From: a virus | Lineage: Duplodnaviria > Heunggongvirae > Uroviricota > Caudoviricetes | IMG/VR virus record: IMGVR_UViG_2660238548_000019 | Length of the DNA: 6,532 nucleotides | Strand: one strand, 5' to 3' | Shown: positions 1,307 to 6,532 of the stretch, piece after piece | Position numbering within the stretch: the first letter of the stretch is position 1 | Layout: every line of letters starts with the position of its first letter | Position numbers and translations under genes: made by a program | The notes under the pieces: model-generated | Told to the model about the DNA's origin: nothing | Database searches by the model: none | What the model saw: only the letters and a program-made list of their open reading frames with translations

Positions 1307-1437
1307 TTATCCTGCAATACTTAAAATACACAATATTTAGAAAACTAATAGTGCCATATGCGATTTTTAAGATTTTGTTATTAATTGCTGTCGCACCTTT
1401 CTAAGGGGGGCAGGGTAACCCACAGAATTCCGGATAC

Positions 1438-1461
1438 AAAAAACCCGCGCATCGGCGGGTT
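1438..1461 (-). terminator. intrinsic terminator downstream of the specificity gene
   Basis: Minus strand reads AACCCGC-CGATGC-GCGGGTT followed by a T-run (plus A6 at 1438-1443), about 65 nt past the stop of the 1527..2621 gene. Confidence 0.55.
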
Positions 1462-1526
1462 AAGCAGCGTGGCAATGTAACCATTCTTATCATGATATGA
1501 GGATTTTTACGATTGTAAAATGTTTT

Positions 1527-2621
1527 TTAACTGACACCAGAATCATCATAACCGCGACTTGTTATAGCTTGCCTGTATGCGTTCATTTTGCGTTCTGCGT
1601 ACTGGACAACATCTTTAATGACAAGCTTATGAACAACTGAAATAAGGTCATTTATATAACAAAAGTCAGGTGACTTATTTTTCACTGGCAACCAAATAAC
1701 ATCGTTCTTAATTTTTCTATTACTAACACTATCCCCCCATGAATATTTATGTGAAATAGACCTATAAATACATGAAATAATGCCCAAATAAGCAAACTTT
1801 GTCCTTCCATCCTCATTGTTAACATAGAGTCGCAAATTATGACTGTCGTTTGAAAAAAAGTCTCGCTCCTGATAAGTTACAACGAATGTCTTACCACCAA
1901 TAAAAATACAGTTCCCTTTTTCCAAGAGTGAGTCATCATAGGCGATATAAGAACTAACAGAGTTATTATCACGGCTAGCACAAAGATAAGGAACATCCCC
2001 ACTATTTTCTATGATGTCTCTAGACAATATGTTTCCTGTATTGCACACTGAGAATAACTCAGTAACAGGAAAGCCTGAAAATTCAATATTTTTAAAATGC
2101 TCCAGGATAAGATAATCTTTTTCCGTTAGTTGGTAATCACTCAGCCCAGCAGCTATCAGGTATGCTTCCAGCTCTTCTATATGGGCCGCTTCCAGCTCTT
2201 CTATATAATTATCCATAAAAAACCAGTCAATTTCATTATTTTTCACTGGTAATGAGATGAAATATTCTCCATCTCTGAGTTTGGAACTCGATAACTGTTG
2301 ACCATAATTAAAACGCCCCTTTAAAGCTTTATTAATCATACTGGCAACATACAGTCCGCGCTTTGCATTAAAGTCGGACTTACTTGATTTTAATGTAAGA
2401 ACATGCACCTTCATTTCTACGCTGGCACAATAAGGATGATAAAAAGCATCTCCAAAAAAATTAACGCTTATAAAATTTTCATAATGCCTTGCATCATCCA
2501 TAAACTCGGTATCAAACTCTCCGATGATACCGTTTTGATCGCTCTTTGCTGAAACACGTTTGATTTTGCCTGGTTTTAATCTTCCTGAGGAGATAAGCGA
2601 GCCTGTGCTCACATAGAACAA
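1527..2621 (-). CDS. specificity subunit with two target-recognition domains (HsdS-like; comparable to BcgI B subunit)
   Basis: Track ORF starts at TTG 2621 with AGGA 8 nt upstream. The protein has an internal duplication typical of two-TRD specificity subunits: TRD starts VEWGEFRIGDLFYVSTGSLI versus IEFSGFPVTELFSVCNTGNIL, and TRD ends SKLRDGEYFISLPVKNNEIDWFF versus SNRKIKNDVIWLPVKNKSPDFCY. The first TRD-start motif lies upstream of the TTG in the same frame (open back to TGA 2705-2703) with no ATG/GTG/TTG, so the true N-terminus is unresolved. Confidence 0.6.
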   Translation of the reverse strand: MFYVSTGSLISSGRLKPGKIKRVSAKSDQNGIIGEFDTEFMDDARHYENFISVNFFGDAFYHPYCASVEMKVHVLTLKSSKSDFNAKRGLYVASMINKALKGRFNYGQQLSSSKLRDGEYFISLPVKNNEIDWFFMDNYIEELEAAHIEELEAYLIAAGLSDYQLTEKDYLILEHFKNIEFSGFPVTELFSVCNTGNILSRDIIENSGDVPYLCASRDNNSVSSYIAYDDSLLEKGNCIFIGGKTFVVTYQERDFFSNDSHNLRLYVNNEDGRTKFAYLGIISCIYRSISHKYSWGDSVSNRKIKNDVIWLPVKNKSPDFCYINDLISVVHKLVIKDVVQYAERKMNAYRQAITSRGYDDSGVS

Positions 2622-2640
2622 ATCGCCAATCCTGAACTCT

Positions 2641-2690
2641 CCCCACTCAACGCTTCTTAATTTATCGCTGAGCGGGGAATTTACTTTCCC
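2641..2690 (-). promoter_or_regulatory. candidate programmed -1 ribosomal frameshift cassette (slippery heptamer, spacer, hairpin) at the junction of the two R-M genes
   Basis: In the frame of the large gene the last codons are GCG GGA AAG TAA, giving heptamer G_GGA_AAG (minus 2690-2684, X_XXY_YYZ pattern) directly before the stop. A 6-nt spacer (TAAATT) is followed by a hairpin with 12-bp stem CCCCGCTCAGCG / CGTTGAGTGGGG (two G-U pairs, 13-nt loop; plus 2641-2677). The -1 frame after the slip reads GTA AAT TCC CCG..., which is the specificity-gene frame. Confidence 0.35.
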
Positions 2691-4642
2691 GCAAAATTGT
2701 TTTCACCTTGTTTTTTCAGTAATTGCGAGACCTCCCATGCAAGGTAATCACCTACCGTCTTTTTGAAATCCTCCAGCGTTGGCCTAGCATCTACTGGCCT
2801 GGTCTGATTCCAGTCCTCACCACTATCAGGATCGATTGTTCCCTCAAAATATTCATCCTCCGTAAAGATATTAAGGCAACCTTTCCCGAAGTGAACCAGA
2901 TCCACAACCTCCTGATAACGCTCTTTTGCACGATCGGCATCAACAAGATTGTTTCTTGCCTTTTTGCGATTAGAGCGAGCGTAGCCGTCATTGGAAAAGT
3001 CGATAAACTTAACAGCCTGTTTCGCGTTATGCGGAATTTTTACCTGAAAAACGTAAATGTACGTCTGAACGCTTGATTTACCAATAAACAGATCCGCAGG
3101 CATTTTGATGCTTGCCAGCAAGGTATTTTCCTTGAGTATTTTTTTGTTGTACTCCGTAGCCTTTCCTGTGCCAGCTGAACTCTGGATAATCACTGCAGCA
3201 TAGCCTTTATCCATCATCGACAGCGCCTTCTGCACGAAAATCATGCCGTTACCTTTAGCTGAATACGGAGGATTGAGAATAAATGCGTCCGCAGGGAATT
3301 TTTCTCCTGTTTTCCCAAATCCATACTTGCCGTCAAAATCGGCCAGCGAGTCTTTATTGAGGATATTCGAGCTACCATCCCCCATCAAAATCATATTCAG
3401 GATGGCCAGCATATAAATACTGGATAACACCTCAAGGCCAAGAAGCTGTTCAGCCTTGATTTGCGCTTCCTTAAGTTGTAGTTCGTTCGGTGAGTGAATA
3501 TTTTCTCTGGCGTCAATGAGCATTTCATTCATTGCAGCCACAAGCAATCCCGCAGAACCTGTAGCAAAATCCCACACATAGGAATCTTTGTTTACTCTGG
3601 CGAGTCGTGCCAGCAATGTGGCAACATAAGGTGGTGTCAGAACGACGTCATTGAGCTTGTCCTGCGTAAATCCAAGCCAGCGATACATCTCATTAAACAG
3701 TTTGCCCGTAAAATCGGTGGTCAGTCCAATTTTGTAATACTCCCCAAGATCATCAACAACTTTAACAAACACGCGCTTTAACTGGCTTTCACCGTTGACT
3801 GGTTTGTTAATGTTTTCAGTCCACAGCGTATTTTGCAACGAGCGCAAAATCATTTCTCTTTTTGTTTCAGGAACAGCTTTCAGCCTTAAAAAATTCCTTA
3901 TTTTCCTGAAAATAATATCACCATCACGCAAGTCCTCCTCCGTTGAAGAGGTCAGTTCTTTTTTATCCAGCGGTGCTAACTTTCCCGGAATCCCCAACGT
4001 TGCAATAACGGTAGCCACAACAAGGTAAACACGATCACTTTCACCAAGCCCCTTTTCATTCTGGTAAATATCGTTATTCAGACGGGAAAGTCGCGTGTCT
4101 ATCTCTTCCTCTTTGCTGGCCTTGATTTTTTCCAGTTCTTCGGGAGGAAGATTAAGCAGCTTTATCTTGTTGAGAAATCCATCAACATTTTTATCAGCAA
4201 GGAACGATAAGTCGGTGAATTCACCAACCTTCTGTCCGGCTCCTAAATTATTCTTTGATACGTACCACACGCCGATTTCATGATGCAGTTCGCCTGTACC
4301 ATCATCGCGCCAGCCGGTCATACCAATAGCAATAATATCAGGGTAATTGGTGAACTGAAGAAGTGCGTTGGCATAATGGACTGCGCCATTCACCGCGTAT
4401 CCATTAATATTTTTAAAATTCCATTCTTTTCTGGCATCTTTGTTCTCAATAATACCGTTGCTGCCAAGTCTGATAAGCCTGTCCTTGTAGCCTTTATACT
4501 CGATGAGAACGGGATACTGCTTGCCGTATTTGTCCTTAACAAGGAGTTTTACGTCGGGACGATTACCGCCTGCGCCGCCATTTTTCGAAAAATAAGCGTC
4601 CAGTGCGTTATCGATCTCTCCGTTAAGTGATGCATTCTGCAA
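2681..4642 (-). CDS. restriction-modification polypeptide: N-terminal PD-(D/E)xK nuclease-like region plus gamma-class N6-adenine DNA methyltransferase (Type IIB BcgI-A-like); 5' end probably extends through the heptamer repeat to ATG 4881 after a frame restoration
   Basis: Track ORF of 653 aa starting at TTG 4642. Motifs read in the translation: RPD (aa 28-30) then EYK (aa 48-50), a PD-x17-ExK spacing; VVLTPPYVATLL (motif X) then WDFATGSAG (motif I) then FILNPPYS (motif IV), the gamma-class order. Size and two-gene layout match my recollection of BcgI (A about 637 aa, B about 341 aa). The frame stays open upstream of 4642 through the whole repeat as plausible protein (...TSSKSRKSVKSVEPEITELANSWLKSYRLDYK) with no in-frame start, until a stop at 4888-4886. 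Confidence 0.6.
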   Translation of the reverse strand: MQNASLNGEIDNALDAYFSKNGGAGGNRPDVKLLVKDKYGKQYPVLIEYKGYKDRLIRLGSNGIIENKDARKEWNFKNINGYAVNGAVHYANALLQFTNYPDIIAIGMTGWRDDGTGELHHEIGVWYVSKNNLGAGQKVGEFTDLSFLADKNVDGFLNKIKLLNLPPEELEKIKASKEEEIDTRLSRLNNDIYQNEKGLGESDRVYLVVATVIATLGIPGKLAPLDKKELTSSTEEDLRDGDIIFRKIRNFLRLKAVPETKREMILRSLQNTLWTENINKPVNGESQLKRVFVKVVDDLGEYYKIGLTTDFTGKLFNEMYRWLGFTQDKLNDVVLTPPYVATLLARLARVNKDSYVWDFATGSAGLLVAAMNEMLIDARENIHSPNELQLKEAQIKAEQLLGLEVLSSIYMLAILNMILMGDGSSNILNKDSLADFDGKYGFGKTGEKFPADAFILNPPYSAKGNGMIFVQKALSMMDKGYAAVIIQSSAGTGKATEYNKKILKENTLLASIKMPADLFIGKSSVQTYIYVFQVKIPHNAKQAVKFIDFSNDGYARSNRKKARNNLVDADRAKERYQEVVDLVHFGKGCLNIFTEDEYFEGTIDPDSGEDWNQTRPVDARPTLEDFKKTVGDYLAWEVSQLLKKQGENNFAGK

Positions 4643-4732
4643 CTTGTAATCAAGCCTGTAAGATTTAAGCCATGAGTTCGCCAGTTCGGTAATTTCCGGC
4701 TCAACAGATTTTACAGACTTTCTTGATTTACT

Positions 4733-4872
4733 GCTGGTCGCTGGTCGCTGGTCGCTGGTCGCTGGTCGCTGGTCGCTGGTCGCTGGTCGCTGGTCGCTGG
4801 TCGCTGGTCGCTGGTCGCTGGTCGCTGGTCGCTGGTCGCTGGTCGCTGGTCGCTGGTCGCTGGTCGCTGGTC
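4733..4872. repeat. perfect tandem heptanucleotide repeat (GCTGGTC)x20 (140 bp); GACCAGC on the coding strand
   Basis: Counted directly: 20 uninterrupted 7-bp units from 4733 to 4872. Because 7 is not a multiple of 3, all three frames translate the same heptad (TSDQRPA) with no stop codons. Confidence 0.97.
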
Positions 4873-5055
4873 TGGCAGCATAAAATCATCCTTTTATGAA
4901 AATCAACGTTTTTTGAGCACTCGCACACAAAAAATTACCGCATTGGTTGCAACGACAACCTTCATTTTGCGGAGCATATGACAAATAAAGTACGGGTGCG
5001 TTGAGGATGCCAGACACATCAGAGGTGGCGGGAGATTACTCCCCTGCCTGGTCTC

Positions 5056-5211
5056 TTACTTCTCAGATTCGTAGTCTACGAAGACAGCGACCTCCGTCTG
5101 GCCGGTTCGGATTCGTACCTCGCAGAAGTCTTTCCTCGTTACCAGTGCTATCACTACGACGGTAATACAGATGACGATCAGGGCGATTAACATCGCCTTT
5201 TGCTGCTTCAT
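5056..5211 (-). CDS. hok: Hok/Gef-family type I toxin (51 aa)
   Basis: Not in the ORF track. ATG 5211-5209, TAA 5058-5056. Translation MKQQKAMLIALIVICITVVVIALVTRKDFCEVRIRTGQTEVAVFVDYESEK is a classic Hok/Gef/RelF-like sequence. The leader just upstream reads AGGCAAGGAGAAGTAGGCTATG, like the hok leader of plasmid R1 as I recall it. Confidence 0.85.
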   Translation of the reverse strand: MKQQKAMLIALIVICITVVVIALVTRKDFCEVRIRTGQTEVAVFVDYESEK

Positions 5212-5214
5212 AGC

Positions 5215-5268
5215 CTACTTCTCCTTGCCTTTCGGCACGTAAGAGGCTAACCTAAGTTTGTAAGTCAT
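5215..5268 (-). CDS. mok-like leader ORF (17 aa) ending 3 nt before the hok start
   Basis: ATG 5268-5266 to TAG 5217-5215, translation MTYKLRLASLRAEGKEK. Its position matches the mok/hok coupling arrangement, but it is much shorter than R1 mok. Confidence 0.35.
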   Translation of the reverse strand: MTYKLRLASYVPKGKEK

Positions 5269-5386
5269 AGATTTGGCCTCAGATTAATGTTAAGCGTCCT
5301 GCAAGACGCGTAATGTTAACTGGGGCTTTTCTCTGTCTGCCTTACGGCTGCATGCCCGAGGCAGACAGCCTCAAGCACCCGCAGCT

Positions 5387-5414
5387 ATTCTACAGTAAAA
5401 ACTCGCGCTTTCAA
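5387..5414 (-). promoter_or_regulatory. sigma70-type promoter, most likely for the hok mRNA; -35 overlaps the Q stop codon
   Basis: Minus strand: -35 TTGAAA (5414-5409), 16-nt spacer, -10 TAGAAT (5392-5387), putative start near 5380 at GGGTGCTTGAGGCTGTCTGCCTC, which resembles the 5' end of R1 hok mRNA. A 9-bp stem hairpin (5333-5368) follows. Confidence 0.45.
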
Positions 5415-5836
5415 TTTCCCGCACGTCCGGCAAACTGACTGGCCTGTGATCCTGATGGTTCACGCTCAACGTACCTGTCCATTTCCAGCTTTACTCCCTG
5501 CATGATCAACATCCCCTCAATAACACCTTCTGCTTTTTGCAGTACCCGCCCGGCCCAGCAATCAGAGCGCCCATGCTTACGGCCCAGTGACATAAGCGTC
5601 ATCCCGAACACATAATAATCATACAGAAAATCATGCAAATCGCTGTTATTGACGTTCAGTTGCGCCATGCAATTGCTGATAATCAGCGCATCGTCATCGG
5701 TACACTGAGGCCGTGATTTAACCTTTGACGGGATCAGCCCCTTAAATCCGGCGGCAATGGGCGACCAGCTCACATCCTCATGATTATTGGCCACCCATGC
5801 GCCCCAGCGTTCAAGCACCTGCTGAATATCACGCAT
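5411..5836 (-). CDS. Q: late-gene antiterminator Q (phage 82/21-type, QuuD-like)
   Basis: Track ORF 5411..5920; I start it at the internal ATG 5836-5834 ([24 protein letters not shown]...), which overlaps the ninH stop in an ATGCGTGA arrangement. The N-terminal sequence matches my recollection of DLP12 QuuD-type Q proteins. Confidence 0.8.
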
Positions 5837-6029: not shown

Positions 6030-6406
6030 GCGGCCTCACTTCTGCTGTTTCGCAGGTCTTTAAGTTTCTGCTGATACTTCGCCTTGATGGCCCTGCACTC
6101 TTCGACAGTCCAGCGATGGCGGTTATGGTTTGATTCGATTTCGTCTACTGCTTCCTGCCCGATGCGGCTAATCAGTTCGACGCGATACGGAACGAGATTT
6201 CCGCTTTTGTGCTGGTTGCACACCACGCATTGCTTGTGAATATTGCGTTCATCAAATCGGAGTTGAGGTGCCGCAGCAGTTGTCCGGTAATGTCCGGCAT
6301 CCCACTGAGCAGACGTGAGCGTTCCGCACGAGATACATGGTAAGTCGCGGTCTCTTTCTCTGACGAAGGCGTTTACGGCTTGTTGGGCTTGTTTAATCCA
6401 GTAACT
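6026..6406 (-). pseudogene. ninG: ninG (rap) 5'-truncated by an IS insertion; only the C-terminal part remains
   Basis: From [43 protein letters not shown]... to the end matches the C-terminal part of lambda NinG as I recall it. The first 16 residues of the track ORF ([16 protein letters not shown]) are read out of the IS end and are not NinG. Confidence 0.75.
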
Positions 6407-6532
6407 GAGGTAGCCTGAGTTTAACGGACACTCCTTCCTGAAATAGAATGGCATCAGAAGGAGCTAATAATGAGCAGAAAAACCCAACGTTACTCTAAAG
6501 AGTTCAAAGCCGAAGCTGTCAGAACGGTTCTT
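6406..6532 (+). mobile_element. left end of an IS3-family insertion sequence (continues beyond the window)
   Basis: Sequence from about 6406 (TGAGGTAGCCTGAGTTTAACGGACAC...) runs into an OrfA start with GAAGGAG RBS. The boundary is placed where NinG homology stops; the exact end is uncertain by a few bases. It may be IS600-like, but that name is from memory only. Confidence 0.6.
6470..6532 (+). CDS. IS3-family transposase OrfA, N-terminal 21 codons (partial)
   Basis: ATG 6470 preceded by AGGAG; translation MSRKTQRYSKEFKAEAVRTVL is a typical start of an IS3-family OrfA helix-turn-helix protein. Confidence 0.7.
   Translation, partial: MSRKTQRYSKEFKAEAVRTVL

Follow-up and report, generated by a model that had tools for sequence, protein, structure and literature searches.

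The properties of the Type IIB (RM)2S family of restriction-modification (R-M) systems, which includes BcgI and BsaXI, have been documented (PMC3592470, PMC3592466, PMC11997821). In other R-M systems, namely Type III mod and Type I hsdM/hsdS, slippage of simple sequence repeats (SSRs) within the coding region turns the gene on or off (PMC7383803, PMC5909438). The K1 capsule O-acetyltransferase gene neuO of prophage CUS-3 has a heptanucleotide repeat at its 5′ end and is ON if the repeat count is a multiple of 3; complete genomes present a mixture of ON and OFF alleles, with tracts of 3–53 repeats (PMC13001214). Here, we describe a two-gene R-M module with a heptanucleotide repeat in its first gene, accompanied by a hok toxin gene, in the IMG/VR virus record IMGVR_UViG_2660238548_000019 (Caudoviricetes). 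The whole stretch of 6,532 nt is referred to as the window. We found the module described nowhere in the literature searched, and a comparative paper on the late promoter pR′ (PMC6266700) makes no mention of hok or methyltransferase genes. We consider it probable that the module belongs to a composite accessory cassette lying within the antitermination module of a lambdoid prophage resembling 933W, and that its R-M system is phase-variable and independent of the antiterminator Q.

Location of the cargo between Q and the putative late promoter

Coordinates are window positions. All phage genes read on the minus strand, as do the promoters, qut element, start codons, tRNAs and repeat tract given below. 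Homology to 933W was found at 6410–5459 (87%) and 1534–774 (92%), two stretches which are ∼30 nt apart in 933W. The extra segment therefore spans 1535–5458 (3,924 bp), and the limits of 1436–5410 given in the original prediction for this locus have to be redrawn. The antiterminator gene Q (5411–5836; 141 amino acids; Pfam Phage_antitermQ, 5e-48) shares 70% amino acid identity with 933W Q and diverges from it past ...RYVERE, with DNA homology ending at 5459. Its last ∼16 codons (5458–5411) are non-homologous to 933W Q, which ends ...ERELPGGRTSVFYQRKK. The inserted segment thus appears to start within Q, replacing the final ∼16 codons of the gene.

In 933W, the −35 element of pR′ stands directly past the Q stop codon, whereas 3.9 kb of cargo separates Q from pR′ here. 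All the regulatory elements annotated in the 933W record map downstream of the specificity gene S in the window. The promoter pR′ (1519–1492; TTTACA-16-TATCAT, a 10/12 consensus match) begins seven bases past the S stop codon and maps onto the annotated 933W pR′. It is followed by the qut core ACATTGCC (1478–1471), identical to the element annotated in 933W, and by tR′ (1461–1438), the first intrinsic terminator past pR′, which was located by the scan at 1461–1442, with a hairpin fold, and by mapping of the identical 933W element at 1459–1438. A second intrinsic terminator (1262–1234; −14.5 kcal/mol, z = −3.3) is identical to the terminator annotated in 933W. A pR′-like motif was present at a constant distance past the S stop codon in every relative checked, including the 81%-identical allele of E. 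coli E7-1N7, Salmonella and 16 viral contigs. By homology, the putative late promoter lies at 1519–1492, neither just past Q nor within 1263–1435, the two options that had previously been left open.

The cargo would therefore be located between Q and its presumed targets pR′-qut-tR′ (1519–1438), upstream of the position occupied by stx and not within it as first proposed. In E. coli 2013C-3033 (L004), Q, hok, the repeat, RM, S, pR′ and stxA1c/stxB1c follow one another in this order, which places stx1c downstream of the module. A late-operon moron is expected downstream of pR′ and tR′; the block lies upstream of both and shares with such elements an accessory distribution and a deviant composition. 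The minus-strand terminators at 1438–1461 and 1234–1262 do exist where they had been predicted, but both stand on the downstream side of the block and do not flank it. No minus-strand terminator was identified by the scan between 5410 and 1461. Within the block, hok has its own promoter, none was recognised for RM, and no minus-strand terminator precedes tR′.

The distribution of the module supports the interpretation that the block was acquired horizontally as accessory cargo. Of 5,426 complete E. coli genomes, 30 contain the RM gene, in each case on the chromosome; the gene is not conserved core content of the related prophages, as had been anticipated. Among 50,697 phage records, a single one, that of PhiR12_3 from ECOR13, has RM–S at high identity. 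Matches to the flanking nin, Q-type and tRNA sequences were obtained in 4,981 genomes. Of the 33 genomes that share the Q allele of the window, 29 have the module. Mosaic blocks common to the relatives extend from the start of Q (5836) to just past tR′ (1436) or to the second terminator (∼1230), while the nin region upstream and the downstream content vary; homology to PhiR12_3-type relatives stops at 1436, directly past tR′. Given the linkage of Q with the module and these shared limits, the mobile unit would consist of Q, the cargo, pR′ and tR′. Past pR′, relatives carry the tRNAs and a TerB gene, stxA1c/stxB1c (2013C-3033), a nanS-like esterase gene directly (PhiR12_3) or lysis genes (Salmonella). 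More distant relatives (60–72% identity, GC 24–41%) have no repeat, Q, hok or pR′.

Base composition was in agreement with the AT-rich character that had been noted by eye for ∼1500–4700. In 300-nt windows, the mean GC content was 41.0% across 1527–4642 against 51.8% in the flanks (sd 2.4, minimum 48.3%), with no overlap (Mann–Whitney p = 1e-9). More specifically, S (1527–2621) has 36.2% GC and the RM open reading frame (ORF; 2681–4642) 43.6%, compared with 50–53% in the flanks. The same contrast is seen in an 18.8 kb relative (L001), where RM–S has 41.2% GC and the remaining prophage 50.3%. The description of the block as compositionally foreign holds for RM and S but not for the hok cassette, which has 51% GC; the heptamer tract has 71%. 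The interval 1263–1534 has 37.6–38.4% GC although it is 933W backbone at 92% identity. Given the AT-rich backbone and the GC content of the hok cassette, composition cannot serve as a marker of the junctions.

Hok/sok loci of type I combine a Hok/Gef ORF with a conserved regulatory leader RNA, and both were found in the block. The hokD-type cassette (5393–4986) scored 118.4 bits against the Rfam model RF01794 (gathering score 59) and holds an intact 51-amino-acid Hok ORF (5211–5056; Pfam HOK_GEF, 7e-22), so that the predicted presence of hok is confirmed. The site at 5414–5387 (TTGAAA-16-TAGAAT, 10/12 consensus match), whose −35 overlaps the Q stop codon, is assigned as the hok mRNA promoter because its −10 (GTAGAAT) forms the first block that hokD-type cassettes share across four unrelated contexts and because the Rfam hok/sok leader model starts at 5380. 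A hairpin past hok was considered as a terminator and rejected, as it lacks a U-tract and its fold is not more stable than that of shuffled sequence (z = −0.1). In 4,691 genomes, hokD loci match the cassette at ∼90% identity, the homology breaking off at 5393 and 4986. Elsewhere, hokD cassettes usually lie in the nin region upstream of Q in lambdoid prophages; here the cassette lies downstream of Q and is tied to the R-M pair in all 30 genomes. In a few relatives, hok is frameshifted. The block appears to be a composite of a hokD-type hok/sok cassette and a two-gene R-M system, since the former occurs in 4,691 genomes with discrete limits as against 30 for the RM gene, and since the relative L036 has RM–S between Q and pR′ without hok.

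Two relatives displayed further differences in this region. In E7-1N7 (L005, 2363–3827), two opposite-strand genes (182 and 309 amino acids) lie between Q and hok; their products gave no Pfam or PADLOC match, and they appear to be further cargo in the Q-to-pR′ gap. In L036, a 146-nt direct repeat (79% identical; 2314–2459 and 6310–6455) brackets RM–S–pR′. It consists of a tRNA-like sequence and the 5′ part of the small RNA (sRNA) STnc100, and a full STnc100 is found past the tRNA in L036. This repeat hints at how the module may have entered the late leader region.

The restriction-modification pair and its heptanucleotide repeat

The RM gene (2681–4732, with the frame open up to 4885) would encode a fusion of an N-terminal PD-(D/E)xK nuclease and an N6-adenine methyltransferase. 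As annotated, its ORF has 653 amino acids from TTG 4642 to 2681. The protein matched the PADLOC profile REase_MTase_IIG over its full length (3.4e-232, residues 10–675) and Pfam N6_Mtase (5e-21), with a weak match to VRR_NUC (9e-4). Residues D60, E78, K80 and N487-P-P-Y490 were invariant across 17 RM homologues, and the PhiR12_3 record labels the protein BcgI alpha chain-like. The adjacent S gene (1527–2621) is a 364-amino-acid ORF with two target-recognition domains, which matched Pfam Methylase_S in two stretches (1e-19) and PADLOC Specificity_II (9e-21). The profiles thus confirm both of the R-M genes read in the original prediction. The 653-amino-acid RM body is intact in 20 genomes at 99.8–100% identity, and S is intact at 361 amino acids in 15 of the 21 instances surveyed, although NCBI often marks it as partial; in E7-1N7 the first recognition domain of S has been swapped. 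The gene pair is kept in Neisseria, Salmonella and viral contigs, and the Neisseria homologues (72% identity) make up an independent locus of two genes, with rluD-like and hisS genes on either side. No HsdR-like ORF and no further long minus-strand ORF was found between Q and pR′.

Type IIB systems of this kind are characterised by a fusion of a nuclease with a gamma-class methyltransferase, an adjacent two-domain S and the lack of HsdR or Res, all of which were observed. Enzymes of this type cleave either side of a bipartite site and require AdoMet and two sites. The R-M pair is thus predicted to be a BcgI-like Type IIB system and the block to be defence-type cargo. Assignment to Type I, in line with the NCBI label 'HsdM family', was rejected: the TIGR00497 hsdM model gave 36 bits against a cut-off of 242.75, HsdR is absent, and the N-terminal nuclease domain of the RM protein is absent from HsdM. 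An NCBIfam search of RM returned only sub-threshold hsdM and MADS matches, and sequence searches of the PDB with the RM protein and a 17-sequence profile returned no matches.

Some features of S were observed alongside. The centre of the gene (∼2164–2206) holds two copies of a 24-nt repeat (IEELEAAH IEELEAYL), compared with three in the allele of E7-1N7. Central repeats of Type I S subunits determine, by their copy number, how long the spacer of the target site is. No ATG, GTG or TTG is present at the ancestral N-terminus of S, and the first possible start is TTG 2621. The conserved segment SVEWGEFRIGD (in Neisseria, MLEAVEWGEFLIGD) is still encoded in frame upstream of this codon, and the open frame reaches as far back as 2702 (2621–2702) and overlaps RM at its end. 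In L036, whose RM is 87% identical, the middle of S contains seven copies of an in-frame octanucleotide repeat (GCGGACTC; positions 5509–5564), in which slippage would truncate S after the first recognition domain.

A perfect heptanucleotide repeat, (GACCAGC)20, occupies 4872–4733 within the 5′ coding region of RM. It is a tandem repeat of non-triplet units, located past the start codon and ahead of the conserved ORF body, and the RM frame stays open across it to 4885. Two start codons precede the tract in different frames: ATG-B (4881–4879), with AAGGA 7 nt upstream, and ATG-A (4888–4886), which is poorly placed. ATG-B is in frame with the RM body if the number of repeats n is divisible by 3, and ATG-A if n mod 3 = 1. 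With n = 20, the ORF is out of frame with both, so the copy in the window is tentatively read as OFF. ON-phase database proteins start MLPDQRPATS... (ATG-B) or MILCCQTSDQ... (ATG-A); E. coli database proteins start MLPDQRPATSDQRPATS.... Repeat-free RM homologues begin ∼30 residues upstream of TTG 4642 (MTQASKKSNKSIEPNIADLANGWLKSY...).

The length of the tract differs among related strains by whole units, and all three frames are populated. Overall, relatives have 3–99 repeats. The 21 instances range from 16 to 99 units; ATG-A is in frame in 7 of them and ATG-B in 4, and the other 10 are OFF. Whole-unit differences also separate strains of one study or serotype: G1/2, G6/7 and G8 carry 91, 83 and 99 units, UCPROB-001 and -002 carry 76 and 83, and three O111:H8 strains carry 56, 83 and 58. 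The short alleles L032 and L048 hold three repeats in frame with ATG-B, and L036 holds a proto-repeat (GACCAAC GACCAGC AACCAGC). In L048 and L036, ATG-A is missing, with ACG in its place in the three-repeat allele and ATA in the proto-repeat allele. The alleles can be arranged in a series from no repeat, through the proto-repeat and three in-frame repeats, to the long tracts. Given that the short alleles are in frame with ATG-B or lack ATG-A, ATG-B would be the ancestral start. The arrangement of ribosome-binding site (RBS), ATG and tract is kept between alleles that are only 81% identical. As judged from the sequence, translation of RM from ATG 4881 would be switched by slippage in (GACCAGC)n.

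A length of exactly 83 repeats (581 nt) recurs across studies, in PhiR12_3, G6/7, O111:H8 strain 7-32 and UCPROB-002 (L009, L011, L014, L022 and others); a preferred length, common descent or the assembly may lie behind this. In 2015C-3121, the tract contains a long poly-C run that resembles a long-read artefact, and some tracts hold imperfect units. The repeat also yields spurious ORFs on both strands (window 4711–4928), and the opposite-strand ORF appears in relatives as an NCBI 'YXWGXW repeat-containing protein' or 'hypothetical protein'.

Proposed mechanism and alternative explanations

The block reads in the same direction as the early rightward operon, and no intrinsic terminator is predicted ahead of tR′; its expression would accordingly be expected to be independent of Q. 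In the lysogen, transcription would proceed from the hok promoter and from an RM promoter, with readthrough from pR once the prophage is induced. The terminator tR′ and the second terminator would prevent this transcription from reaching the tRNA, late and lysis genes. The addition or removal of 7-nt units by strand slippage would shift ATG 4881 in or out of frame. Where RM is ON, unmethylated DNA entering the cell would be restricted by the enzyme, which would shield the lysogen from other phages. Through switching, cost and risk would be distributed over the population, and hok/sok could stabilise the element. Given that Q and qut must travel together, cargo placed between them would be carried along whenever antitermination modules are exchanged.

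Several points weigh against this interpretation. No empty site with the same Q allele was found in the 5,426 complete genomes at megablast sensitivity, and the junctions therefore rest on 933W, a relative that is 87–92% identical. The 933W record itself marks pR′ and qut as putative, and Q of the window is only 70% identical to 933W Q. The 20 repeats (140 nt) may represent a short-read assembly collapse, as other short viral contigs show 9–19, which makes the OFF call for the window copy uncertain. The start annotated by NCBI is the internal TTG 4642, and initiation there is possible. A comparison of the ∼110 nt upstream of the RM start between the window and E7-1N7 revealed no convincing sigma-70 promoter. 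The AlphaFold model of RM is poor (pLDDT, the predicted local distance difference test, 57.9, from a shallow alignment) and its fold comparison with BsaXI is weak. With this model, Foldseek placed BsaXI at rank 11 (E 3.7e-6, TM 0.22) behind HsdM subunits; the alignments to BsaXI and BpuSI were long but loose, and the comparison supports an HsdM-like methylase core only. The expression of RM and its methylation and restriction activities are likewise predictions from the gene sequences.

The alternative drawn in the original prediction is a late-operon moron in the stx position, with R-M genes switched by Q and with adjacent tRNAs supplying the rare codons. A strong promoter-like site does overlap the Q stop codon, where the −35 of 933W pR′ stands, but this is the site at 5414–5387 assigned to hok, with a spacer unlike that of 933W pR′, and homologues of pR′, qut and tR′ are found past S in all relatives as well. 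The cargo uses AGA/AGG (21.0 per 1000) and ATA (11.5 per 1000) well above typical E. coli, and the three tRNAs, of which two read these codons, adjoin it: tRNA-Ile2(CAU) at 1071–996, tRNA-Arg(UCG) at 988–912 and tRNA-Arg(UCU) at 898–822, identified by ARAGORN and Rfam and corresponding to 933W ileZ, argN and argO. The run AGG AAA ATA AGG that had been cited as an example is indeed in frame in the RM ORF (...FRKIRNF...). However, enrichment over the flanking phage genes was not significant (AGA+AGG 18.3 per 1000 in the flanks, p = 0.85; ATA 2.0 per 1000, p = 0.07). AGA and AGG make up 50% of the arginine codons in the cargo and 24% in the flanks, and CGA+CGG, the codons of tRNA-Arg(UCG), are low in the cargo (3.8 per 1000). 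The same tRNAs are present in 933W without the cargo and under their own promoter, pT, which maps to 1109–1081 here; they are absent from the locus in at least three carriers of the module (2013C-3033, 2015C-3121 and PhiR12_3), and 11 of the 30 module-carrying matches reach into the tRNA region. Since the tRNAs are part of the 933W backbone and are missing from three module loci, any benefit to the cargo would be incidental. A specific role of the tRNAs in expression of the cargo is therefore unsupported, and the late-operon model as a whole appears very unlikely.

The R-M genes might instead be a decaying passenger, in which neutral expansion of the repeat inactivated the gene, or RM might be a non-switchable enzyme made from TTG 4642 only. 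Nearly half of the 21 instances (10) are out of frame with both ATGs, and the hok frameshifts, the TTG start and partial S of the NCBI annotation and the imperfect units point in the same direction. On the other hand, the integrity of RM and S described above argues against long silencing, the presence of all three frames and the whole-unit differences between strains of one study or serotype fit an active tract, the RBS–ATG–tract arrangement has outlasted divergence to 81% identity, and repeat-free homologues conserve the first ∼30 residues, which an enzyme initiated at TTG would lack. We therefore regard this explanation as unlikely. A further proposal is that the methyltransferase serves chiefly to regulate host or prophage genes epigenetically and in a phase-variable manner (a phasevarion), restriction coming second. 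Its SSR-switched design resembles the phasevarions surveyed in PMC7383803 and PMC5909438, and the module is present in pathogenic lineages (O111:H8, Stx1c strains and the atypical enteropathogenic E. coli E110019). The invariant nuclease motif D60/E78/K80 argues that restriction has been retained in the family, and Type I methylation in E. coli is reported to have no effect on gene regulation (PMC8287963); a mainly regulatory role is highly improbable.

The composite, phase-variable and Q-independent cassette thus remains the preferred interpretation. An extension of it, which we regard as quite unlikely, is that the Q–pR′ gap constitutes an unrecognised cargo site of lambdoid prophages, where cargo would be tied physically to Q and the DNA on which it acts, shielded from late genes by tR′ and transcribed early, and that an OFF-to-ON switch of restriction could cut the unmethylated chromosome, trigger the SOS response and induce the prophage in a random subset of cells. 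If this were true, restriction switching would be tied to the release of phage and toxin in the Shiga toxin (Stx)-carrying relatives.

Flanking features and comparison with known systems

The remaining features of the window belong mostly to the 933W-like backbone. Upstream of Q lie ninH (6029–5829) and ninG′ (6454–6026), the latter with an ORF of 142 amino acids compared with 201 in relatives. The end of ninG (6407–6532, ∼126 nt) did not align to the closest relatives or to 933W and represents a mosaic junction within the gene. Downstream of the second terminator, a DNA methylase remnant (1112–1264) encodes the C-terminal 50 amino acids of what relatives' annotation describes as an incomplete site-specific DNA methyltransferase. 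The remnant lies inside the 92% homology to 933W and is backbone rather than cargo; truncation by insertion of the cargo was rejected, as the remnant is already present in the 933W backbone. Past the tRNAs and their terminator (808–785, which maps onto 933W), a TerB-family gene (724–221; Pfam TerB, 3e-16) occupies the slot where 933W has stx. A small ORF at 57–224 adjoins this gene on the minus strand, and in relatives the TerB gene is followed by a DUF3927 gene and a nanS-like esterase gene. Positions 1–52 gave a partial match to the sRNA STnc100 (Rfam, 33.5 bits; gathering score 47), interrupted by the window end.

Phase variation by SSRs is rare in E. coli, and neuO was the sole other example found in this analysis. 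A module with up to 99 heptamers in lambdoid prophages, including one that carries Stx1c, would be the second prophage-borne example. If the switching is true, populations would be mixtures of cells differing in methylation and in their barriers to phage and DNA uptake. The location further suggests that late control does not extend to every accessory gene near Q, which bears on predicting their co-expression with Shiga toxin upon induction. The results also concern annotation, as the RM gene is routinely mis-started at the internal TTG and labelled HsdM.

The module resembles BcgI and BsaXI in that a nuclease and an N6-adenine methyltransferase (NPPY) share one polypeptide, with a separate adjacent HsdS-like subunit and no HsdR. 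It differs from them in having no sequence match to solved structures, in being prophage-borne and in its 5′ heptamer repeat, which the Neisseria homologues lack. With 933W, the window shares ninG-ninH-Q (87%) and, in the same order, pR′, qut, tR′, the second terminator, the methylase remnant, pT, ileZ-argN-argO and the terminator (92%); it departs from 933W by the 3.9 kb of cargo between Q and pR′, the replaced C-terminus of Q and the TerB-family gene in the stx position. The hok cassette is like chromosomal hokD and hok-sok in its intact 51-amino-acid Hok and conserved leader RNA, with ∼90% identity to the hokD cassettes of lambdoid prophages, and is unlike those of other prophages (nin region, upstream of Q) in its position downstream of Q and its linkage to the R-M pair.

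As in the SSR-switched mod and hsdM/hsdS systems, an R-M gene would be switched by a simple repeat in its coding region. Here, however, the host is E. coli, the switched gene provides nuclease and methylase in a single protein for a Type IIB system of two subunits, and the repeat is a heptamer tract of up to 693 bp; the words Escherichia, heptanucleotide and prophage are all absent from PMC7383803. The likeness to neuO lies in an E. coli prophage cargo gene with a heptanucleotide repeat in its 5′ coding region. The unit differs (GACCAGC against AAGACTC in neuO), as do the range of repeats (3–99 against 3–53), the function and the presence of a second ATG in another frame. CUS-3, the phage of neuO, is not a 933W-like lambdoid phage, and the location of neuO differs from that of the module. 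The locus thus represents a novel form of familiar elements: a predicted Type IIB R-M system, probable phase variation by an SSR, and cargo that a prophage carries at an unusual site.

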